Source: Bacteriovoracaceae bacterium (GTDB lineage: Bacteria > Bdellovibrionota > Bacteriovoracia > Bacteriovoracales > Bacteriovoracaceae). Taken from it: a stretch of DNA of 53,341 bases. The stretch is taken from positions 1-53,341 of the forward strand of contig JBFGZE010000013.1 of the NCBI GenBank assembly GCA_041586955.1, given 5' to 3'. The position numbers and the translations under genes are program-made. The notes below the pieces were generated by a model. That model saw only the letters and a list, made by a program, of their open reading frames with translations. It had not been told where the DNA came from and made no database searches. Positions 42,355 to 52,883 of this stretch are shown here, piece after piece; positions within the stretch are counted from its first letter, which is position 1, and each line of letters starts with the position of its first letter.

Positions 42355-44016
42355 ATGATATCCGTCATGTCAAAACGATTACACCGCGGCCTGCCTGGTC
42401 TCCTTATTCATCAATTTCGTGAATTTTATTATTTTTATTTAGCGGCATTTTTATGTCTTGCGTTGACGCATTGGACCCAAGGTCATTTGCCGGTACTTGC
42501 GAGAGACTTGGCCTTGGTTGTTACAGGTAAAGGAGGGGAGTTCTCCCCATGGATATTTGTGCTTTTGGCCGTTGGCATCATCTTTTTTAGAACTGGCTCG
42601 CGGCTTTTATTCTTTTACCCTGCTCGCATTTTGCAAAAATTATTGCGTTTAGAAATTCTTGATATTTTAGAATCGGCCTGCCCATTGCGCTATGAGCATC
42701 ATTCGTCAGGACAATTATTCCAGGTGATTAGTCAGGACATGGATCAATTGCGGGCGCTTATTGGCTTTGCGCTTTTACAAGTTGGTAATATCGTTATAGC
42801 ACTTGTTGTCTTATTGCCAAAATTGGCGAGCTTCCACCCACGTTTAGTTGAGGCGCTGACTCCAATGGCGGTGTGTTTTATTTTATTTTCTTTGGTGGTT
42901 AGTCGCAACCGCACTCATTACCGCCGCTCTCAAGATGCTCAAGGTGAAGTACAAAATATTATCATCGAAAGTTACTTAGGTAAGAAAACAATTAAAAACT
43001 ACCATGCGGAAAAATCTTTTAAAGAATTATTCGCCGCCTCTTCACATAAAGAGTTATGGCATTTTTATCGAGCAGGTAAGACCATTGCAGGTGCTATTGG
43101 GCTAGTCGAATTAGGTGTCGGTCTTAGCCTCGTTTGGGGAGGCTACCTTATTCAATTGGAAAATATGGGCGCAGAAATGCTGGTTTTATTTTCAGGCTTC
43201 GTGTTTCTTTTTTTAGAACCTATGATGTTTGTCTCCTGGATAGGAGTGGTCTTATCAAGATCCCATGGCTCATGGAGTCGAATTAAAGAATTGATCGGCG
43301 ATATGGAAAGAGAGTCTCATAAAGAAAAAGAATTGAAGAGTTTTCCCTTGGCGGTTGGGGACTCTATTGAGACGGTCCTCCCATTTTGGCAAACGTCTTT
43401 AAAATTTTCATTTAAAAGTCATCGATGGCATGCCCTGGTGGGCCCAACAGGTCATGGTAAAACCCATCTTCTTCATTTATTGGCCTTAAAATTAAAGAAT
43501 GCCGGTCATTCTATTTCCCTGGTGGCGCAAGAGCCATACCTCTATAACGACACAATTGAAGATAATATTTTTCTCGGACGTATTCCAAAAGAGGAAGATT
43601 TAAAGGAAGCTCAGAATTGGCTGCATTTAATGGGACTAGATATTTTATCGGCGGATATCAAATCACTTTTACAATTAGAAGTAGGCGAAAATGGTAAACG
43701 TTTAAGTGGCGGTCAGGCCAAGCGCTTGTCCTTAGTTCGCTCTTTAATGTCTCATGCCGATATCATCCTTTGGGATGATCCTTTTAGCTCTATTGATGTT
43801 ATTTTAGAGAAACAAATCATTGCCTCGCTTAAAGAAAGTCCCCTTCTCAGGGATAAAACCATCATCCTTTCGACTCATCGCTTGACGACGGTATGTCAAT
43901 GTGATGATGTTTTTTATATCGATAAGATCGAAGGTCTGGTGGAAAAGGGAAATGTGCAAACGTTATTAACTCAAAAAGGGAAAACATATGATTATTTCGC
44001 CGGACAAATGGTCTAG
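42355..44016 (+). CDS. ABC exporter half-transporter (MdlA-like), degenerate Walker B
   Basis: TMD + NBD; GPTGHGKT, LSGGQ, IILWDD. Confidence 0.88.
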   Translation: MISVMSKRLHRGLPGLLIHQFREFYYFYLAAFLCLALTHWTQGHLPVLARDLALVVTGKGGEFSPWIFVLLAVGIIFFRTGSRLLFFYPARILQKLLRLEILDILESACPLRYEHHSSGQLFQVISQDMDQLRALIGFALLQVGNIVIALVVLLPKLASFHPRLVEALTPMAVCFILFSLVVSRNRTHYRRSQDAQGEVQNIIIESYLGKKTIKNYHAEKSFKELFAASSHKELWHFYRAGKTIAGAIGLVELGVGLSLVWGGYLIQLENMGAEMLVLFSGFVFLFLEPMMFVSWIGVVLSRSHGSWSRIKELIGDMERESHKEKELKSFPLAVGDSIETVLPFWQTSLKFSFKSHRWHALVGPTGHGKTHLLHLLALKLKNAGHSISLVAQEPYLYNDTIEDNIFLGRIPKEEDLKEAQNWLHLMGLDILSADIKSLLQLEVGENGKRLSGGQAKRLSLVRSLMSHADIILWDDPFSSIDVILEKQIIASLKESPLLRDKTIILSTHRLTTVCQCDDVFYIDKIEGLVEKGNVQTLLTQKGKTYDYFAGQMV

Positions 44017-45739
44017 TTTCTTCCTTTTTCAGGGAGGGCGTCGTTACCTATTGGGGATGGCCTTTTGCCTGGCCCTATCGGCCGTTCTTGGCGGTCAGGT
44101 GCCGCATGCCATTACGAATCTCGCTAACTTTTATGGAACCTCACGTTTTAATGAAGGCCTTATTCTTTTAACGGCAATTTTCGTCGGGACTTATTTTAAT
44201 CGTGCTCTTTATCAAATCGTTATTAATAAATACATTCTTCTACTTATCCAGCATGTCCGGACTTGGTGTTATAATCAATGGCTGGACACCCATGAGGTGC
44301 AAACTTCCACTAAAAATACATCTGATCGCTACCCGCAGGGGGAATTATTAGCTCGTATGATGAATGACACCGAGTCTGTGCGCGAACTCATTACCTCCGG
44401 AACTTTTGCGATCTTTATTAATCTTTTCTTTGTGGCCTCCTGCTTAATCCAATTTATGACATTGAACCCCAAAATGGGAGGACTATTGGCCGTGGCCGAA
44501 GTCCTCTGCGCAGTTCTTCTCATTTTTGGCTCACGCTCTATGCGAGATATCTTTTTAAAAGTACGGCGTTCTCGCGGTATTATGTCGCGCACCTTGGCCA
44601 ATTTGGTCGGTGGTGTTTCTCAAACTTATTATTCCAATCATAATCATTACGCCTTAAAAAAAGGTGAAGTGGCCTTCGACGACTTTCTTAAGAATATTTT
44701 AAAGTCGAATATTTACGATGCCTCTTATTATTCTGTGGCGGAGAGCTTATACCCATTACTTTTGTTATTAGTTGGTTTTGCTTTTCCCTATGTGGAAATC
44801 CAACAGGCGGCGATTGTTTTGGCGTTGGTCGATCTCATTCAGCGATCCATTAATCCGATTAAGGAAATTGCATCTAAAGTGGCCAATATTCAACGCGCCT
44901 ATACTGGATTTTTGCGAATCTCAGAGTTCCTAAAAGACTTAGATCCGAGGCCTAGTGAAGATCCCTTATGGACTGAGGGGATTAAGTCGATGAAGGTTGA
45001 TGTAAAGGAGTTTTCCTATCCTGAAAAAGGCGGGGAGAGGTTTCAATTAAAAAATATCTCTTTCGAGGCGAAAGCATCAGAAATGATTGGACTGGTGGGT
45101 TTATCGGGCTCAGGAAAATCGACGTTATTACAAATTCTGACTCAAACAGTTATTCAAGATAAGGGCACCATTGAATTGAGCTATGATTCGGGCAAGACTC
45201 TCATTGTGAATCATGATGATGAAAATAGCCGCCAGCAGTATAAATATTGCATCGGATTGGTTAGCCAGGAGTCCCATCTCTTTTCAGAAAGTCTTTACTT
45301 TAATATTGGCCTCAATCAAAAGACCCGCGAGGAGTTCGATACCTTTTGGAACAAAATGAAGGTGGAAATTCCCTACCTCGCGGAGTGGGGGATCGATGTA
45401 AATGACGTTATTCATGTGGCCAAACTATCCCTAGGGCAAAAACAATTATTAGCGGCCCTGCGCTCTCTCTTTCTCAATAAGCCTATTGTTCTTTTTGATG
45501 AAATTGCATCTGGCCTGGACACTGCTCTAGAGAGTGCCCTACGCCGCATGGTACAACTGATTCAAGGTGAATGTCTGACTTTCATTGTGGCGCATCGCTT
45601 AGAAACAATTATTGACGCGGACAGAATTTTGGTAATGAATGAAGGCTCCTTAGTGGATTCTGGAAAACATCAAGAGCTTTTACAGAGCTCTTTAATTTAT
45701 CAGGAGTTCTTACAGGAGTTGGCGCATGAGTTTGCTTAG
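43988..45739 (+). CDS. ABC exporter half-transporter (MdlB-like), degenerate signature
   Basis: TMD + NBD; GLSGSGKS, LSLGQ, IVLFDE, AHRL. Confidence 0.88.
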   Translation: MIISPDKWSSFFLFQGGRRYLLGMAFCLALSAVLGGQVPHAITNLANFYGTSRFNEGLILLTAIFVGTYFNRALYQIVINKYILLLIQHVRTWCYNQWLDTHEVQTSTKNTSDRYPQGELLARMMNDTESVRELITSGTFAIFINLFFVASCLIQFMTLNPKMGGLLAVAEVLCAVLLIFGSRSMRDIFLKVRRSRGIMSRTLANLVGGVSQTYYSNHNHYALKKGEVAFDDFLKNILKSNIYDASYYSVAESLYPLLLLLVGFAFPYVEIQQAAIVLALVDLIQRSINPIKEIASKVANIQRAYTGFLRISEFLKDLDPRPSEDPLWTEGIKSMKVDVKEFSYPEKGGERFQLKNISFEAKASEMIGLVGLSGSGKSTLLQILTQTVIQDKGTIELSYDSGKTLIVNHDDENSRQQYKYCIGLVSQESHLFSESLYFNIGLNQKTREEFDTFWNKMKVEIPYLAEWGIDVNDVIHVAKLSLGQKQLLAALRSLFLNKPIVLFDEIASGLDTALESALRRMVQLIQGECLTFIVAHRLETIIDADRILVMNEGSLVDSGKHQELLQSSLIYQEFLQELAHEFA

Positions 45740-45781
45740 GTTATCATTAGACAGATTTAATATTTAGGAAGGAGTTAAACT

Positions 45782-46825
45782 ATGAAATGGCGATTAAGTA
45801 TGGTCTTTCTGACAATCATTCTTTTTATTGGGATATCTTGTCATAAGGAAGTGGAAAGTAAACCAAATTTTATTTTTAAGAAGGCCCCTAATACTCAAAC
45901 TGCAGCAAAAATCTTGGGGAAAGATGTTTCTTATGATGAACTTCATAAAGGTATCGAGAGTGATATTTATGAAGCGGAAATGAAAGTTTATGAATTGAAA
46001 ATGAACCGCTTAAGGGCGCTTGTTTTGGAGCGTTTAATGGCGGCAGATCCCCGTAAAAAGGGGATGAGTAATGATGAATTCTTAGATAAACATATCGCGA
46101 CGGAGATTAAGATTAAGAAAGAAGAAATTGACGCTTTTATTAAAAAACGTCAAATCCCCGCAGAGCATATTAACGATGTTCTCAAAGGAAGAATTGAAAA
46201 ATTCTTAGTCATGGAAAAGAAAAAAGTTGCAGTTGATGCTTGGATTTCAAGCAAGACTTCCAAGCAGCCAGTCGAGGTTTATCTTAATAAGCCGCAAAGG
46301 CCAGTATTTAAAGTTGTTGCCGGTAATTCTCCTTCTATGGGTGCGGCGGACGCTAAGGTGACCGTTGTTGAATTTTCTGATTTTCAATGCCCATTCTGTG
46401 CTAAGGGTGCGGATGTGGTGACTGAATTGAAGAAGAAGTATGGAAATAAGGTGAAAGTTGTTTTTAAAAACTTCCCACTTCCTTTTCATAATCATGCCGA
46501 AAAGGCCGCCCAAGCGGGGTTATGTGCCCATGATCAAGGCAAAGATAATTTCTGGAAAATGCACGATAAGATGTTTGCTGATCAGGCAAAACTTGATGAA
46601 AGTGGTTTGAAAGAGACAGCGAAAGCTATTGGCCTAAAGCTTGAGGCCTTTGAAAAATGCCTCACCTCTAATAAGTTCAAAGGACAAGTTGCCAAGGAAA
46701 TGGAAGAGGGGAGAAGTGTGGGAGTCAAATCGACTCCGACTTTTTTTGTCAACGGTCAAATGGTCAACGGTGCCCAACCAATCGAAGTTTTTGCTGAAAT
46801 TATCGACGAAGAATTGAAGAAATAG
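45782..46825 (+). CDS. DsbA-family thioredoxin-fold lipoprotein with helical N-terminal domain
   Basis: Lipobox GISC; EFSDFQCPFC; KNFPL; GVKSTPTFFVNG. Confidence 0.9.
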   Translation: MKWRLSMVFLTIILFIGISCHKEVESKPNFIFKKAPNTQTAAKILGKDVSYDELHKGIESDIYEAEMKVYELKMNRLRALVLERLMAADPRKKGMSNDEFLDKHIATEIKIKKEEIDAFIKKRQIPAEHINDVLKGRIEKFLVMEKKKVAVDAWISSKTSKQPVEVYLNKPQRPVFKVVAGNSPSMGAADAKVTVVEFSDFQCPFCAKGADVVTELKKKYGNKVKVVFKNFPLPFHNHAEKAAQAGLCAHDQGKDNFWKMHDKMFADQAKLDESGLKETAKAIGLKLEAFEKCLTSNKFKGQVAKEMEEGRSVGVKSTPTFFVNGQMVNGAQPIEVFAEIIDEELKK

Positions 46826-46855
46826 AAATAATTTCAAAGACTTAAATAACCTACT

Positions 46856-46893
46856 AACGCTCGTGGCAATTCTTTCCTCGGGCGTTTTTTTTT
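46856..46893 (+). terminator. Intrinsic terminator
   Basis: AACGCTCG...CGGGCGTT imperfect stem followed by a long T tract. Confidence 0.7.
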
Positions 46894-46951
46894 GCCATTT
46901 AGGGTAGACTCTTTAGAGGAGTATCTTGGCCTTTCCAGGAAGGAAGTCTAA

Positions 46952-49339
46952 ATGGATGTAAAAGATTATAATCAGCGGTTAACTCAAACTCGGCAGCAGT
47001 ACTCAGATGCCAGGGATGAGATGCGCCAAAATTATAATAAATCGATTGAAGATCTCAGCGAACTCAATAAGTCAAAGCAGGCCGATCAATTACAAACCTT
47101 TAAGAATCAAAAAAGTGAAATCGAAGCACAACAAAAAAATACCGAAGAAATCTATAATAATAAGGCCACCGACGCTATTAATAATGTGACCAAACGTTAT
47201 CGTCAGGAAATTGCGCAGGCAAAGGACGAGTTTTCACGTGATCGAAATAATTATCGCGAAGGTTATCGTAAGGAAATGGACAATATGGCGCGTAGTTTCC
47301 GTCAGGCCCGCGATGCTCAGAATAAGCTTCATGCCCAAGATACGGCAAATATTAAACGCTCGTTACAAGAGGCGAATGGTGATAGTGGCTCGCGCTTAGA
47401 GCAAAAGATGCATGAATTTAATGAGGTGAATGCTGAGCGCTTTAGAAAAGAAAGAGCAAATTATCGTCAAGCGCGAGAAGAATTAGGGAGTCATTTTAAA
47501 GATCGAGTTGATCATCTTACTGAACTCAATGATAAGAATACCAAGAATCAAAGAAACGTTTTTTTAAAAGATAAAAACGCAATGGAAAAGCGGACGGAAG
47601 AGCTTCAGACTCATTATAGTGATAAAACCAAAGAAGCGGTTGATGAGGCCACTAAAAATTACCGGCAAGACCTCAAAGAGGCGACAGAGAATTTTCAAAG
47701 AGAGAATAATAATGTCCGCAACAATTATCGGCGGAAGTTGACCAATGTTAGTGATGCCTTTACTGATAATAAAAATGAAATGGAAAGAGGGCACAAACTT
47801 GAAAGTGAAAACCGACATAAACAATATAGAGATAAACTTGAAGAGAGCGCTCGCAACTTTAATGAGCGGGTGAATGAAATTACTCGCAATAGTAAACACC
47901 AAGTAGAAGACATTCGAAATAGTTATGTCGATGAGCAAGGAGACCTTCTTAAAAAAAATGAACGTGAAAAGCGTCAAATGATTCAAGATTTTTCCAAAGA
48001 AATCAGTGACATTAAAGAGAAAAACCTGAACGAAAAAACCGCATTGATGACCTCTCAGAAAAGAGAATTAAGTACTGCTAGTGAGTTAAATAATAACCGT
48101 ATTGAAACGATACAAGAAAATAATAAGCGGAAATCAGAGCGAATGGAGAAAAGCTTCGAGGATGCCACTAATGGACTCATCCAGCGCAATAAGGCCGCGA
48201 CAGACAGTATGATTAAAGATCTCAATAACCAGGCATTGAGAGACAAGAATAAGCAAGAGGCGCAAATTATTGCACTTAAAAGAGAAAAGCGTCAGATGTC
48301 CAATAAGTCCGGAATGACTCAATTTGATCAAGAAAAAGAGAGAATTGATCACGCCCACGGTTTACGGGTGGAGAATTTAAAACGCGCCATGGACAATCAG
48401 AATTATAAGGCCGAACTTAAAATGGAGCGACTGGCTAAAGGTCACCAAGACGAGCTTAGAAATCTTAGCATTATGCAGGGGATGGAGATTGATAAGAAGA
48501 AGGGCGAATTGGCCGAGTTCCGGGAAGTGGAATTGTCCCGTCTGAAAGATAAGCAAGATGAAAAAATGGAGGTCTTTGATCGCCGTTACCGCACCCTAGA
48601 AGTGGAAAAGGAAGATCAGTCTATCAATTCTGCCCAAAAGTTACGCAATGTAGTAGAGCAGAAACGACTAGAGAATGCTCGTACCATTAATCGTCTCAAT
48701 GATGAATATCAGCGTAATGCCTCAATTATGAGAAAAGATCTTTCCGAGCAAAATGCCAATTTTATGAAAGCTGAGCGGGCCAATGGCCGTCGGGAGCGCG
48801 AAAGTTTACGTGATGAAATGAATACTAAGTTTGAGCGTAAAGAAGATAGCCTTAATAAAAGAGTTGATCATTGGCAATCAGAGCATCGTAAAGCGGTGGC
48901 CAGTTATGAAAAGAAGTTAGATGAACTAGCAAAGAAGTCGGCCAAAGAGCTCAGTTCACTCCAAAACTTGGAAAAAGAAAGACGCTATCAAGATCAGCGT
49001 TTGAAAAAAGCAGAGATGAATGATCTTGCACGCGAGTATGAAAAGGTGATTGGTGATATCCGCGTTCGCTTTGACAAGGAAATGGCCAAATTTAAAAACC
49101 ATAGTGATACCTATATTGCGAAATTAACCGAGCGCTATGAAGACCAATTGACGAGAGAGAGGCGAGACGCTTCTAAAGATTTAAACTTGAAACTGGCCCA
49201 TGCTAAATCTGAATATAATCGCATGGTAAGAGAGAAAGATATTCAGTTGGAAGCAGTGAGCCAGAAATATGAAATGAAGATGGATAAGATGCGCCAAGCA
49301 AATGCTCAGGCCCAAGAAGTTCAGTCAAAACGTAGTTAA
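46952..49339 (+). CDS. Long all-helical charged coiled-coil protein
   Basis: 795 aa rich in E/K/R/N/Q, no Pro or Cys seen, no signal peptide or TM segment. Confidence 0.8.
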   Translation: MDVKDYNQRLTQTRQQYSDARDEMRQNYNKSIEDLSELNKSKQADQLQTFKNQKSEIEAQQKNTEEIYNNKATDAINNVTKRYRQEIAQAKDEFSRDRNNYREGYRKEMDNMARSFRQARDAQNKLHAQDTANIKRSLQEANGDSGSRLEQKMHEFNEVNAERFRKERANYRQAREELGSHFKDRVDHLTELNDKNTKNQRNVFLKDKNAMEKRTEELQTHYSDKTKEAVDEATKNYRQDLKEATENFQRENNNVRNNYRRKLTNVSDAFTDNKNEMERGHKLESENRHKQYRDKLEESARNFNERVNEITRNSKHQVEDIRNSYVDEQGDLLKKNEREKRQMIQDFSKEISDIKEKNLNEKTALMTSQKRELSTASELNNNRIETIQENNKRKSERMEKSFEDATNGLIQRNKAATDSMIKDLNNQALRDKNKQEAQIIALKREKRQMSNKSGMTQFDQEKERIDHAHGLRVENLKRAMDNQNYKAELKMERLAKGHQDELRNLSIMQGMEIDKKKGELAEFREVELSRLKDKQDEKMEVFDRRYRTLEVEKEDQSINSAQKLRNVVEQKRLENARTINRLNDEYQRNASIMRKDLSEQNANFMKAERANGRRERESLRDEMNTKFERKEDSLNKRVDHWQSEHRKAVASYEKKLDELAKKSAKELSSLQNLEKERRYQDQRLKKAEMNDLAREYEKVIGDIRVRFDKEMAKFKNHSDTYIAKLTERYEDQLTRERRDASKDLNLKLAHAKSEYNRMVREKDIQLEAVSQKYEMKMDKMRQANAQAQEVQSKRS

Positions 49340-49438: not shown

Positions 49439-51121
49439 ATGAGACGTGCTAAAATTATAGCAACCCTTGGCCCATCCAGTAATACGATCGAGAAAATCAA
49501 GGATCTGATCCTGGCAGGCATGAATGTTGCTCGGATCAATATGAGCCATGGGACCCATGAAGGTCATGCTGAGGTGATTCGCAATATTCGCCAGGCCTCG
49601 GAAGATATTGGTATTGAAGTCGCTATTTTATTAGATCTTCAAGGCCCTAAAATTCGTGTCGATAAATTAGATCGGCCTTTAGAAATTAAGGCCGGTGAGA
49701 AATGGGTGATTGGCCCATCCTCAAAAATTAAAGATTATCCAGAATATCAAAATAATTATATTCCCACCGTTTATGAGAAATTAGTTGATGATTGCCATGA
49801 TGGCGCTCGTATTTTATTTGATGATGGCCTTATGTCGGCCGTTGCTAAGAAGCGTGACCGTGATGTATATGAAATCGAAATTTTAACTGGTGGTTTTCTT
49901 AAATCAAATAAGGGGATTAACCTTCCCGATTGTGAGGTTTCTGCACCTGCTTTCACCGCCCAAGATCGTGTTAATTTATTATTTGGCCTTAAGCAGGGGA
50001 TCGACTTTGTCGCTCTCTCTTTTGTTAGAACACGTGAAGATGTTGAAGAAGTTAAATTTCTTCTTCATTCGCTTAAAATGAATATTCCCATTGTCTCTAA
50101 AATTGAAAAGCCTCAGGCCATCGATAATTTAGAAGAAATTCTTAAGGTGACTGATGTAATCATGGTGGCACGAGGAGATATGGGCGTAGAAGTGGGCAAC
50201 CATTTAGTCCCAGCACTTCAGAAAAAAATTATTACTCTTTGTAATGCTCGCTATACGCCAGTTATTACCGCCACTCAAATGTTGGAGAGCATGACTGAAA
50301 ATCCAACACCGACCAGAGCTGAAGCTTCAGATGTCGCTAACGCTATTTGGGATGGCACAGATGCCGTTATGTTAAGTGGTGAAACGGCGGCCGGTAAATA
50401 CCCTGTCGAAGCGGTTAAGATGATGGGACAAATTGTCGAAGAAGCAGAAAAGAGTCCGAAAGAGCGTCCTTTTCTGCGCCATATGGATCTTTCAAGCGTC
50501 AACGCCTCTGTCATGGTCGCCGCTTCAATGATTGCCGAAAAAGTGGATGCTAAGCGTATTTTATCCGTGACCGAATCGGGCAATTCTTGTCAGAAAATTT
50601 CTCTCTTTAGACCGCGTACCCCAGTTCTTGGAATTACCAGCCATATTAATGTCGCTCGTCGCATGTGCCTTTACTGGGGAGTTAGCCCTTTTCATATTTT
50701 TTCTTATGATGAAGATAATTTCAATTTTCAAAAAGACGTCGTTAATAATGTTCGTGACGCTCTTTCTCTTGAAAATGGCGATAAGTTGGTGATCACTCGT
50801 GGTGATGGTAAGTTTTTCGCCAAAGGGAGTTCTAATTCCGTTAAAGTGGAAATTATAAAAGATGTTCCTAATGTTTTAGGCTCCGATGACTACCTGGTGA
50901 CTGGTGAAGATGATAAAAAAACTATCATGATCGACACTAATGTTTGTGGTTCTTGCCAGAATTGTATTTCCATTTGCCCCCATGGAATTTGGAAATTAAC
51001 GGATGATAATCATAATAGAACTACCATCGACCTTGATCGTGTCAGTCGTTGTACTATGGATAATGAATGTATCCGTGTCTGCCCGACAGGTGCGATTGAG
51101 ATTATTCCCAAATTTACATGA
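49439..51121 (+). CDS. pyk: Pyruvate kinase with C-terminal dicluster ferredoxin domain
   Basis: KIIATLGP, RINMSHG, DLQGPKIR, MVARGDMG, TQMLESM, PTRAEASDVANA, MLSGETA; tail CGSCQNCISICP...CTMDNECIRVCP. Confidence 0.95.
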   Translation: MRRAKIIATLGPSSNTIEKIKDLILAGMNVARINMSHGTHEGHAEVIRNIRQASEDIGIEVAILLDLQGPKIRVDKLDRPLEIKAGEKWVIGPSSKIKDYPEYQNNYIPTVYEKLVDDCHDGARILFDDGLMSAVAKKRDRDVYEIEILTGGFLKSNKGINLPDCEVSAPAFTAQDRVNLLFGLKQGIDFVALSFVRTREDVEEVKFLLHSLKMNIPIVSKIEKPQAIDNLEEILKVTDVIMVARGDMGVEVGNHLVPALQKKIITLCNARYTPVITATQMLESMTENPTPTRAEASDVANAIWDGTDAVMLSGETAAGKYPVEAVKMMGQIVEEAEKSPKERPFLRHMDLSSVNASVMVAASMIAEKVDAKRILSVTESGNSCQKISLFRPRTPVLGITSHINVARRMCLYWGVSPFHIFSYDEDNFNFQKDVVNNVRDALSLENGDKLVITRGDGKFFAKGSSNSVKVEIIKDVPNVLGSDDYLVTGEDDKKTIMIDTNVCGSCQNCISICPHGIWKLTDDNHNRTTIDLDRVSRCTMDNECIRVCPTGAIEIIPKFT

Positions 51122-52122
51122 TTAGCGGTGTTGATCTACAAACTATTCTTGAGGATTACCCTCAGATTGTGGATTGCGGTTATACCACCGAATTGACGCC
51201 CGAATCTTACGGGCGTTATGATCGCTGGGTGCAAAAGAAAGGGCATGGGCCACTTCATTATTTGGCCGATTACCGCAAGGACAAACGAAAATCCCTCAAA
51301 GCATACTACCCCGAATGTGAATCTGCCTTGGTTTTTTTATTTTCATATGCTGACGGGAAGAAGGCACTCGATGATTTTTATCAAGGCCTTGAAAGTAATG
51401 GGCTGAAGGTCGCCAGCTATACCCTAGGCTTTAATGGCCAGGATTATCATTACGTCATTAAAGAATGGTTAGGGCAAATAGGGCAGCGTTTGGCCGCCTT
51501 GAACCCAGACCTCGATTATAAATTAACCTTGGATGTTCACCCCGTTTTAGAGCGCGATCTGGCCTACCGCTCAGGCCTTGGTTGGTTTGGCAAAAACTCG
51601 ATGTTTATTTCCAAAGAGCATGGTTCTTTTGTCTTATTAGGTTCTCTTCTCTTGAATCAAAGAATGGATTTAAAAGAAAAGGCGATGGATATTGATCATT
51701 GCGGTAATTGTCGCGCTTGTATCGACATCTGTCCAACAAACGCTATTGATATTGAAACCAGAACTATCATAACTTCGGAATGCATCTCCACTTATACTAT
51801 CGAATTATTCAAGGAAGAGGACACGCCTCCTAAGATTAAATGGCATGGCGGGGAAATCTTTGGCTGTGATCTTTGCCAAGACGTTTGCCCTTGGAATAAA
51901 AAGGTTCTCAAGGCCATAACTGCACAATCAGAGCTCTTAAATACGCCCTTTGGTCAATTAATCAAAGAAACATTTCTCACTCCATCTCCTGCCGCCATAA
52001 AAGCGAAATTAGAGGGGATGAGTGGCCGCGCTTTTACGCGTCTTTTTAAAGGTACTTCTTTTGAGCGTTCGGGAAAAAGAGGGCTTCTAAAGACTCTTCG
52101 CCACCTTTTTTATTTGGATTGA
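51118..52122 (+). CDS. queG: Epoxyqueuosine reductase
   Basis: DYH, PVLERDLAYRSGLGWFGKN, CGNCRACIDICP, CISTYTIE, GCDLCQDVCPWN. Confidence 0.92.
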   Translation: MISGVDLQTILEDYPQIVDCGYTTELTPESYGRYDRWVQKKGHGPLHYLADYRKDKRKSLKAYYPECESALVFLFSYADGKKALDDFYQGLESNGLKVASYTLGFNGQDYHYVIKEWLGQIGQRLAALNPDLDYKLTLDVHPVLERDLAYRSGLGWFGKNSMFISKEHGSFVLLGSLLLNQRMDLKEKAMDIDHCGNCRACIDICPTNAIDIETRTIITSECISTYTIELFKEEDTPPKIKWHGGEIFGCDLCQDVCPWNKKVLKAITAQSELLNTPFGQLIKETFLTPSPAAIKAKLEGMSGRAFTRLFKGTSFERSGKRGLLKTLRHLFYLD

Positions 52123-52883
52123 AAATAACCCTGATCTTTAAGCCATTTTTTGAGATGGGGTGCTGCCATTTCAGGTAAATGATGAGGGAGCCGTTTTGGT
52201 TTCTCCAATATGATGTCGTTACCTTGATCTTTTAAGATTTTTGCCATGCGCTCAGGACCGTCAGGGCCCGTTACTATATCGTCTTCACCCGCTAAAAAGA
52301 ACACTGTTTCGCCCTTCAATTGAAGCTTTCGCTTGAGAGTGTCAATGCGTGGAAAGAGAATCTCCGGGTGAATTGCTGGGGAGACTAATTGGGCGCGAAT
52401 ATTAAGCGTACTTTTATAAAAGGGGGTTTGAAACAAATGGGTTTGTCCCTCTTCATTGACCCCAAGACCAACTGCTACCCCTATTTTCTTGTAGGATGCG
52501 AGAGAGGGCAGGTTAAGGGCCATTAACGCCATCAGGGCACCGAGGCTATGGCCTCCTAGGATCAAGCGTTGGGCCTTCTGTTCATAATATTCTTCCATAC
52601 TAAAAATGGCCTGCGCAAAGAGAGCGGGGGTGTGCTCTTCAAATTCGTCCATGGATTGGACTTCGCTATAATGTCCCAGTAAATGACCAGGCAAGTCAAA
52701 AATGGCGACCGCCAGGCCCTCTTCCGCCAAGCGAATTCCCCAATTGAGGATGCTATCTTTATGGCTAGTATAGCCATGGGAAAAGGCCGCAAAGGTAGTT
52801 ACAGGCCCCTTGGGGAGGAAATAAAACACATGGGTTTTCTGGTCAATATAGCTAAGTGTCGAGGTTTTTACTTTAATATCCAT
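52110..52883 (-). CDS. Alpha/beta-hydrolase fold protein
   Basis: HGYT, DLPGH, nucleophile elbow GHSLG, GEDD, late His. Confidence 0.85.
   Translation of the reverse strand: MDIKVKTSTLSYIDQKTHVFYFLPKGPVTTFAAFSHGYTSHKDSILNWGIRLAEEGLAVAIFDLPGHLLGHYSEVQSMDEFEEHTPALFAQAIFSMEEYYEQKAQRLILGGHSLGALMALMALNLPSLASYKKIGVAVGLGVNEEGQTHLFQTPFYKSTLNIRAQLVSPAIHPEILFPRIDTLKRKLQLKGETVFFLAGEDDIVTGPDGPERMAKILKDQGNDIILEKPKRLPHHLPEMAAPHLKKWLKDQGYFQSK

Follow-up and report, generated by a model that had tools for sequence, protein, structure and literature searches.

Few allosteric enzymes have been studied as closely as pyruvate kinase (PK; EC 2.7.1.40), which is known to be controlled by metabolites, phosphorylation, and thiol oxidation; the effector site lies in its C domain, together with one tetramer interface. 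The solved PKs closest in sequence to the protein described here are from Bacillota, namely 2E28 of Geobacillus stearothermophilus (E 5e-113) and 3T05 of Staphylococcus aureus (E 1.1e-105), in both of which an extra PEP-utilizer-like domain follows the C domain. Ferredoxins of the 7Fe and Pyrococcus types, on the other hand, are free-standing electron carriers with Asp at the second Cys position of one motif, a substitution that is linked to a 3Fe or labile 4Fe cluster. Fe-S domains also occur within non-redox proteins such as ABCE1 and Bacillus subtilis PurF. We know of no description of an Fe-S cluster domain on any PK. The initial annotation could name no characterised example, and no study of a PK-ferredoxin fusion was found in the literature searched; the combination appears unstudied.

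The window, that is, the whole 53,341-nucleotide stretch of DNA analysed in this study, comes from a predatory marine bacterium. On its forward strand, a single open reading frame (pyk-fd, 49439..51121) was identified by the ORF list, Pfam, and NCBIfam as encoding a 560-aa PK with a C-terminal ferredoxin domain. The initial reading of a complete PK that continues in frame into a ferredoxin domain was borne out by Pfam, which assigned PK, PK_C, and Fer4 to this one frame. Its parts, all on the same strand, are the PK barrel comprising the A and B domains (residues 1-326, 49439..50416; Pfam, alignment, and AlphaFold2 model), the alpha/beta C domain, PK_C (residues 357-470, 50507..50848; Pfam), a linker (residues 471-495, 50849..50923; homologue alignment and AlphaFold2 model), and a bacterial-type dicluster ferredoxin domain (residues 496-554, 50924..51100; Pfam, domain model, and fold matches). 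Short and in part conserved (D475, P477, G481, K493, and K494), the linker contains an A7 run at 50905-50911 and has the lowest confidence of its region in the AlphaFold2 model. A 334-aa queG gene (probable epoxyqueuosine reductase; 51118..52122, forward strand; Pfam and NCBIfam) follows directly. Its ATG (51118-51120) and the TGA of pyk-fd (51119-51121) share a 4-nt overlap, ATGA (51118..51121, forward strand), precisely as first reported from the sequence.

By domains and residues, the product of pyk-fd is a catalytically complete PK. The whole PF00224 profile (1-328 of 328 positions) was matched at 390.7 bits (cut-off 30; E 6.6e-117) and PF02887 (PK_C) at 75.7 bits (cut-off 28; E 3.9e-21), and the NCBIfam pyruvate kinase model TIGR01064 scored 520.6 against a cut-off of 306.4. 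R32, N34, S36, D66, K221, E223, D247, and T279 are of catalytic type and invariant among 49 aligned sequences; presumably they map to the catalytic residues of rabbit PK. In the AlphaFold2 model of the whole protein (pLDDT 89.7), residues 1-474 are matched by solved PKs with Z of about 53. The best NCBIfam model, NF004978, describes a 590-position, extra-domain type of PK and was matched at positions 7-481, and Pfam found no PEP-utilizer (swivel) domain in the 560-aa protein. In a sequence search of solved structures, no solved PK aligned beyond residue 476. Because 2E28 and 3T05 align over residues 1-476 only, the ferredoxin sits in the place of their extra domain, the junction being the same at about residue 476; their accessory domain is PEP-utilizer-like, whereas that of the PK-ferredoxin is a Cys-rich ferredoxin fold. 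A genome search returned the pyk-fd protein as the sole PK match, so that all PEP-to-pyruvate flux runs through it.

Within the accessory domain, Pfam recognised Fer4 (32.2 bits, cut-off 21.1) and Fer4_7 (31.3 bits, cut-off 27) over residues 503-554. The two motifs begin at the very bases given by the initial annotation: motif 1, CGSCQNCISICP (CxxCxxCxxxCP; 50945..50980, forward strand), opens with the C503 codon at 50945 and includes C506, C509, C513, and P514, and motif 2, CTMDNECIRVCP (CxxDxxCxxxCP; 51050..51085, forward strand), opens with the C538 codon at 51050 and includes D541, C544, C548, and P549, Asp replacing the usual second Cys. The domain model (pLDDT 95.4) was matched by Foldseek, with a probability of 1.00, to PorD (9bt4_H, TMq 0.68) and to oxalate-oxidoreductase, 7Fe, and clostridial ferredoxins. 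Its fold resembles that of the Sulfolobus 7Fe ferredoxin 1XER (TMq 0.70, rmsd 1.9 A, 66 columns), and Acidianus 2VKR and Pyrococcus furiosus 2Z8Q (a D14C variant) were also among the fold matches; these ferredoxins turned up as sequence matches as well. Fer4-clan Pfam matches and Foldseek agree on a bacterial-type dicluster ferredoxin fold. The eight-Cys pattern of clostridial-type 2x[4Fe-4S] ferredoxins is absent, motif 1 being complete and motif 2 reading CxxDxxCxxxCP, and the pattern present is that of 7Fe types, with seven Cys and, in one motif, something other than Cys at the second position. Unlike in 7Fe and Pyrococcus ferredoxins, the Asp lies in the second motif.

This 7Fe-type pattern is conserved. 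Loss of the Cys residues had been named at the outset as grounds for abandoning the proposal, and all seven were retained in every one of the 149 homologues of at least 540 aa (from a set of 152). The Asp, likewise noted initially, was found in 148 of these and replaced by Glu once. Across the two clades described below, D499, C503, C506, C509, C513, P514, C538, D541, C544, C548, and P549 were invariant (20/20). Alignments of this kind indicate that the ligand positions are under strong purifying selection. From motifs and fold, we infer that the domain binds Fe-S clusters and, from the parallel with 7Fe ferredoxins, predict one [4Fe-4S] cluster together with either a [3Fe-4S] or an Asp-ligated, interconvertible [4Fe-4S] cluster. 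Fifteen frames with Fer4-type motifs occur in the same genome, including a small two-motif frame of 2x[4Fe-4S] type (C8:23771-23986), which rules out PK-ferredoxin as its sole ferredoxin.

The initial annotation proposed looking for the PK, PK_C, and Fer4 architecture, and for pyk-queG synteny, across genomes. The 120 best listed homologues all (120/120) combine PK and PK_C with a Pfam domain of Fer4 type. Among 201 genomes assigned by database names to Bacteriovoracaceae (69 genera, 136 high-quality genomes; matches at E<=1e-10), the ferredoxin domain was detected in 157 genomes, 48 genera, and 108 of the high-quality genomes, and was absent from 21 of the 69 sampled genera. Among the matches listed, it sits in PK-length frames, save where a contig end or a poly-A split interrupts them, and 142 family genomes have a single uninterrupted PK-ferredoxin frame. 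A second deep clade (families f21 and f24), whose PK is 39-42% identical, has the same fusion with both motifs; its members appear in databases as Bacteriovoracaceae, Bacteriovoracia, Oligoflexia, or Bdellovibrionota. The gene order of a DsbA-like gene, a long ORF without a Pfam match, and pyk-fd is common to both clades. BLASTP did not support homology of this long ORF across the clades (E 0.022, in low-complexity, coiled-coil-like sequence).

Outside the fused families, in none of 12 matched genomes of the same phylum does an unbroken frame extend into the domain. Ten of these matches stop at query residue 473 or earlier, the match in genome G036 attains residue 519 solely through two stops, and in genome G035 an unrelated frame of 249 aa contains a weak match of its own (E 2.8e-4, query 492-558). 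In a quick tree, non-fused PKs are nested among fused PKs; together with the 21 of 69 genera that lack the domain, this shows that PK works without it. Deep branches of that tree are weak, which bears on whether both clades share one fusion event. Genome comparison indicates that the PK-ferredoxin fusion is ancient within Bacteriovoracia-type predators. Farther afield, the best phylum matches of a distant fusion, P0194, are 43-48% identical, and the Atlas lists one PK+PK_C+Fer4 cluster (63 members, 79% of them with Fer4); the few members that bear a label are 'Candidatus Walliibacteriota', a lead only.

Two readings were offered with the initial annotation, a PK gated by redox state, iron, or O2 and a PK-tethered electron donor for QueG; the former is the best-supported inference, and the latter is disfavoured by the comparative data. 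In general terms, we consider the chances about even that the domain is a 7Fe-type Fe-S module that acts on PK itself, regulating or stabilising it. A small bacterial-type ferredoxin domain is attached at the end of the C domain, at about residue 475. Since both the effector site and one of the tetramer interfaces lie in the C domain, cluster occupancy or oxidation state, as set by iron supply, oxidants, or redox conditions, could modulate the allostery of PK or the stability of its tetramer; the cluster might instead do no more than stabilise PK. The tight queG operon of Bacteriovoracaceae would be a separate, later arrangement with at most an opportunistic secondary use. A more specific form of this proposal is put forward tentatively: a labile Asp-site cluster that interconverts between 3Fe and 4Fe, at the tetramer-forming C domain, may report iron supply or oxidant load and set PEP-to-pyruvate flux, and in the Bacteriovoracaceae operon the reduced domain might also feed electrons to QueG. 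Counting against PK regulation, the nearest fold matches are ferredoxins and ferredoxin subunits that serve in electron transfer, with no known sensor domains among them.

These same folds (PorD and 1XER) fit the idea that a ferredoxin parked on PK is a tethered electron carrier that supplies Fe-S/cobalamin reductases, in this family notably the co-translated QueG, and perhaps QueH elsewhere, and so links carbon flux to queuosine. The downstream gene has the QueG_DUF1730 (32.5, cut-off 25.1) and Fer4_16 (59.7, cut-off 30) Pfam domains and matches positions 18-295 of the 337 in TIGR00276 below that model's cut-off (177.9 bits against 200). Its Pfam architecture is that of QueG, a cobalamin/[4Fe-4S] enzyme known from a B. 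subtilis structure (PMC5175355), of which the PK ferredoxin domain is no part. QueG needs low-potential electrons, its own clusters lying at -510 and -575 mV, and the available text of that report names no physiological donor (PMC5175355); nor was a named physiological donor of QueG found in the literature searched. The ATGA overlap and the position of queG immediately after the fused gene, on the same strand, in at least 115 of 142 fused family loci would fit a functional link of some kind to QueG in Bacteriovoracaceae.

The comparison of genomes points the other way. Ten orthologous PKs without the ferredoxin domain (54-67% identity; G012, G041, G123, G047, G059, G065, G067, G078, G079, and G084) have queG 35-136 bp downstream. 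A copy of the domain elsewhere in the genome (E<=0.01) was searched for in three of these; G012 and G123 gave no match, and G041 gave one weak match in a 1161-aa frame. Conversely, three genomes (G017, G004, and G087) have QueH and no QueG match, and their PK-ferredoxin is intact with all ligands; in G017, the only one of them for which the two gene positions were compared, queH is distant from pyk. The synteny seen in the family does not extend to the second clade, where queG was found within 6 kb at none of seven loci. Across the family and second-clade genomes, the ferredoxin domain and queG are thus not kept or lost together, and these three observations indicate that the fusion and the queG adjacency evolve separately. 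Evidently, QueG can function without this domain, and the domain is retained without QueG. Comparative data of this kind indicate that the domain travels with PK rather than with queG and that the pyk-queG adjacency is a family-level operon habit separable from the fusion.

PK, moreover, catalyses no redox reaction that could charge the domain, and the genome encodes other Fer4 ORFs, the small 2x[4Fe-4S]-type frame among them. The alternative partner, a 2-oxoacid:ferredoxin oxidoreductase, is present in the same genome, but POR_N was found in only one of five second-clade genomes that are at least 90% complete, and this enzyme was rejected as a general partner. A predicted complex of QueG with the ferredoxin domain (score 0.01, mark 0.32) gives no evidence in either direction. 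We consider a dedicated role of PK-ferredoxin as QueG electron donor unlikely, and the broader proposal of a tethered carrier doubtful. Neighbouring queG, tempting as the inference is, does not account for the ferredoxin domain.

A purely structural role, in which the domain is a clamp, held together by a cluster or even lacking one, that takes the place of the Bacillota-type extra domain and secures tetramer stability without signalling, is improbable in our judgement. It agrees with the shared junction of 2E28 and 3T05, with the occurrence of structural Fe-S domains in non-redox proteins such as 2pa8_D, and with the repeated loss of the domain while PK was retained. It leaves unexplained, however, why Asp is retained (148/149 homologues, and 20/20 sequences from both clades) at a position where a Cys ligand would make the cluster sturdier. 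The 7Fe ferredoxin III of D. africanus contains a cluster that is termed a 'reactive [3Fe-4S]' in the available text of its report and takes up metals (PMC13111528), which likewise speaks against a purely structural module.

Four relatives (G019, G203, G158, and G046) have the PK and ferredoxin parts in different frames. All four breaks lie within a 9-11-base poly-A run that encodes the KKK linker, where the window has only A7, and in G019, the single split locus that was read through, the ferredoxin portion lacks its own start codon; for these reasons, the view that a free-standing small ferredoxin gene was ancestral was rejected. Library matches of 75-95 aa to the ferredoxin domain may be fragments. 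In three public marine metagenome runs of a single study, contigs cross the PK/ferredoxin junction without indels; in the X1 metagenome, which may be the source of the window itself, one contig covers 50500-51500 with one substitution, located in queG. An artefact, in which a frameshift, a missed stop, or a chimeric assembly joined a small ferredoxin gene to pyk, has the four split frames in its favour and is practically negligible, and for the window refuted, given the 120/120 best listed homologues, the 149/149 Cys conservation, the indel-free contigs, and the 142 uninterrupted frames, among which the intervening stop codon that the initial annotation had held up as fatal to the fusion does not occur.

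The ferredoxin domain is carried by the sole PK found and kept across much of a class of obligate bacterial predators. If cluster state controls activity, iron, oxidants, or redox state would be a new type of input to central carbon metabolism, and a soluble protein of about 560 aa with cultured hosts (Bacteriovorax stolpii and Halobacteriovorax) would offer a tractable model. Compared with 7Fe and Pyrococcus ferredoxins, which share its Asp, the domain forms the C-terminal end of a kinase that has no redox function. In this respect it resembles subunit D of archaeal RNA polymerase (2PA8; chain 2pa8_D is a weak sequence match, E 0.0019), in which an Fe-S domain likewise belongs to a protein needing no electrons. 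Mechanistic likeness to 2PA8, ABCE1, and PurF is by analogy alone, and none of the three is a glycolytic kinase; a cluster-switched PK would be the first Fe-S-gated one.

The gene pyk-fd (49439..51121, + strand) is a single uninterrupted frame of 560 aa that encodes, according to Pfam, the pyruvate kinase (PK) barrel over its full profile (residues 1-326, E 6.6e-117), PK_C (residues 357-470) and, both above cut-off, Fer4 and Fer4_7 (residues 503-554), which bears out the initial annotation of a complete PK running in frame into a ferredoxin domain. By NCBIfam the product is a pyruvate kinase (TIGR01064, 520.6 bits; cut-off 306.4), and the gene is the sole PF00224 match in the window's genome (88% complete). 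Both cluster motifs begin on the + strand where they had been placed: CxxCxxCxxxCP (CGSCQNCISICP, from 50945; C503, C506, C509, C513) and CxxDxxCxxxCP (CTMDNECIRVCP, from 51050; C538, D541, C544, C548). The cysteines on which that reading depended are each kept in 149/149 homologues of at least 540 aa (out of 152 stored), and the Asp noted in place of the second Cys of motif 2 is found in 148, the remaining one having Glu. The ATGA overlap with queG is also present as described (ATG 51118-51120, TGA 51119-51121).

The full-length AlphaFold2 model (pLDDT 89.7, pTM 0.84) dips only at residues 426-428 and in the linker, and its residues 1-474 match solved PKs with Z of about 53; the isolated ferredoxin domain was modelled with a pLDDT of 95.4. 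By Foldseek (probability 1.00), the domain model resembles the ferredoxin domains of oxalate oxidoreductase, PorD of a PFOR (9bt4_H, rmsd 1.8 Å over 65 columns), the 7Fe ferredoxins of Sulfolobus and Acidianus (1xer, TMq 0.70; 2vkr), HgcB, the D14C variant of P. furiosus ferredoxin and a clostridial ferredoxin, while its sequence matches polyferredoxin and NuoI-like proteins, 7Fe ferredoxins and archaeal RNA polymerase subunit D. Seven Cys, with Asp replacing the second Cys of one motif, are the pattern of [3Fe-4S]-containing or Asp-ligated ferredoxins, and by analogy the cluster content of the PK domain would be 7Fe-type or Asp-ligated. D. africanus ferredoxin III is described as pairing a stable [4Fe-4S] cluster with a "reactive [3Fe-4S]" that takes up metal ions (PMC13111528).

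The architecture search proposed in the initial annotation revealed that PK + PK_C + Fer4 is widespread in the window's family (Bacteriovoracaceae by database names) and recurs in a second clade. At E<=1e-10, the 75-residue ferredoxin part was matched in 157 of 201 sampled family genomes (own genome included), in 108 of 136 high-quality genomes and in 48 of the family's 69 genera; a PK match was found in 188 of the 201. Adjacency was tabulated for 153 genomes, comprising the 150 best-scoring PK places listed and three lower-scoring ones, with 61 further matches beyond the listing. A single frame reaches query residue 550 or later in 142 of these 153 genomes, the others being split at residue 495 (four), cut by a contig end (two) or devoid of the ferredoxin domain (five). 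PK ends at query residue 468-476 in all ten further genomes without a ferredoxin match that were checked directly. Outside the family, none of 12 matched same-phylum genomes has an uninterrupted frame into the ferredoxin domain: in ten the PK match stops at residue <=473, in G036 it reaches residue 519 only by crossing two stops, and in G035 a separate weak match (E 2.8e-4) lies in an unrelated 249-aa frame. In a quick maximum-likelihood tree of PK bodies, the non-fused G041/G123 and G012 are nested within the fused family clade (support 97), which implies secondary loss of the ferredoxin domain in these lineages.

Exhaustive profile-free searching with the ferredoxin domain, followed by Pfam, recovered the distant PK-ferredoxin fusions P0168, P0194, P0241, P0248 and P0170. 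A genome scan for the P0241 type yielded eight loci (MAG titles: Bacteriovoracaceae, Bacteriovoracia, Oligoflexia, Bdellovibrionota or Deltaproteobacteria), six of which map to f21 and f24, two further families within the window's phylum. PK of this second clade is only 39-42% identical to that of the window, and across the two clades (20 sequences aligned) there is no variation at D499, D541, the seven Cys or the two Pro; the quick tree gave no settled branching between the clades. In the second clade, 7/7 sequences (L027-L034; alignment A4, columns 50-53) have an additional Cys three positions ahead of motif 2 (CxxCxxDxxCxxxCP); it is absent from the window's clade and could be an alternative fourth ligand. 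The very divergent fusion P0194 (571 aa; PK 38% identical to the window's, composition unlike the rest of the alignment, long branch) retains CxxDxxCxxxCP. One PK+Fer4 cluster in Atlas has a few members labelled Candidatus Walliibacteriota, a lead only; the fusion may be present outside Bdellovibrionota.

In both fusion clades pyk-fd is preceded by a DsbA-like gene and then a long ORF that matches no Pfam family. This conserved upstream block (window 42355-49339; L027 1443-4568; L022 3807-6669) starts in the window with two ABC transporter genes, followed by the DsbA-like thioredoxin gene (45782-46825) and a Lys/Glu/Asn-rich ORF of 795 aa without a Pfam match (46952-49339). The long ORF of the second clade (~650 aa) runs ~26 nt past the pyk start, and the long ORFs of the two clades reach a BLASTP E of 0.022 only. 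Different genes follow at each second-clade locus (TauE, PRPP synthetase, MutS).

Between a gated PK and an electron donor for QueG, the two functions initially put forward, we consider an Fe-S module belonging to PK itself the most likely reading, at about an even chance: the Asp-site cluster would sense iron, oxidant or redox state for PK, or the module would stabilise the PK tetramer. A tethered electron carrier, QueG donor included, is doubtful. It draws on the ATGA coupling, on the requirement of QueG for low-potential electrons, its clusters lying at -510 and -575 mV (PMC5175355), and on the frequent adjacency within the family. Among the matches listed, queG follows immediately on the same strand, within 400 bp, in 115 of 142 fused genomes; its place is outside the matches listed in 21, the two genes are on different contigs in two (one or both lying at a contig end), and in G021 queG is convergent, 1.8 kb away. 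However, the pair separates in both directions. No TIGR00276 match was obtained in three fused genomes, G017 (98% complete), G004 and G087, all of which retain the full PK-ferredoxin and every ligand, and queG is within 6 kb at 0/7 second-clade loci with flanks. Conversely, 10 of 15 genomes examined with a ferredoxin-less PK (G012, G041, G123, G047, G059, G065, G067, G078, G079, G084) have queG 35-136 bp downstream, gaps too short to contain a separate ferredoxin gene; of the others, G014 and G053 have no queG match, G049 has the genes on different contigs, and G024 and G071 have no queG place among the matches listed. A search for the ferredoxin domain elsewhere at E<=0.01 found nothing in G012 or G123 and a single weak match in G041. 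QueG therefore works in genomes whose PK lacks the domain, and the domain persists where QueG is missing. These separations, together with PK having no reductase activity and with the other ferredoxin-type frames in the genome, weaken the donor proposal. A purely structural role of the domain is judged improbable.

The window's queG (51118..52122, + strand) has QueG_DUF1730 and Fer4_16 above Pfam cut-offs and scores 177.9 bits against TIGR00276, under the equivalog cut-off of 200, over model positions 18-295 of 337; its product is short (334 aa) with a divergent C-terminal part. An alpha/beta-hydrolase gene (Hydrolase_4, Abhydrolase_6; 52110-52883, - strand) is convergent with queG, covers its last 13 nt and directly follows pyk-fd in genomes without queG; queG is cleanly missing between the two at L019 (G017), L022 (G004), L023 (G087) and L026 (G007). 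QueH is carried by G017, G004 and G087, with no QueH match in the window's own genome, and QueG appears to have been replaced by cobalamin-independent QueH in some family genera. Elsewhere in the window's genome, a 2-oxoacid:ferredoxin oxidoreductase alpha-type gene (POR_N, 612-aa frame; L079, G000:C54:13561-17082) and a small 2x[4Fe-4S]-type ferredoxin frame with two motifs (72 aa; G000:C8:23771-23986) indicate ferredoxin-dependent metabolism independent of the PK domain. This oxidoreductase is unlikely as a general partner of the domain.

An artefact joining separate genes is scarcely credible, because Fer4-type domains accompany PK and PK_C in 120/120 of the best listed homologues (best 120 of 7999; 544-581 aa, 68-74% identical; where named, "pyruvate kinase" of Bacteriovoracaceae, Bacteriovorax stolpii, Halobacteriovorax or Bdellovibrionota), the ligands are conserved, and contigs from three runs of one marine metagenome study, among them X1, which may be the window's own source, span linker, both motifs and ATGA overlap without an indel. 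X1 differs from the window by one substitution within queG and X3 by one at 50575. Residues 472-560 as sole query gave 52 matches among 60 candidates, all 52 with a PK domain. The stop codon between pyk and ferredoxin that would have spoken against the fusion is absent from the 142 single-frame family genomes. The KKK linker is poly-A-encoded (window A7, 50905-50911; L021 2975-2985; also L097, L098, L099 and L100-L104), and among the genomes examined the run is A10 and in frame in five further ones from two genera. In G019, G203, G158 and G046, runs of 9-11 A throw PK and the ferredoxin part into different frames; in G019, the sole split locus read through, the ferredoxin part has no start codon of its own. 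Such runs are either sequencing errors in a homopolymer or a site prone to slippage that could yield ferredoxin-less PK.

Full-text literature searches yielded no account of a PK fused to a ferredoxin, in agreement with the initial annotation, and their listings name no physiological QueG electron donor; the architecture, visible in public annotation simply as "pyruvate kinase", is uncharacterised as far as these searches go. The C-domain end of PK structures lies at the C-C tetramer interface, near the effector site, which favours an effect of the ferredoxin domain on allostery or oligomer stability. The linker is short and partly conserved (D475, P477, G481, K493, K494, D499). The closest solved PKs, G. 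stearothermophilus 2E28 and S. aureus 3T05, align to residues 1-476 only, and the best NCBIfam model, a 590-position extra-domain type, is matched over positions 7-481. Like pyk-fd, 2E28 and 3T05 carry an extra C-terminal domain after PK; theirs does not align to the ferredoxin part, which therefore takes the place of the Bacillota extra domain.
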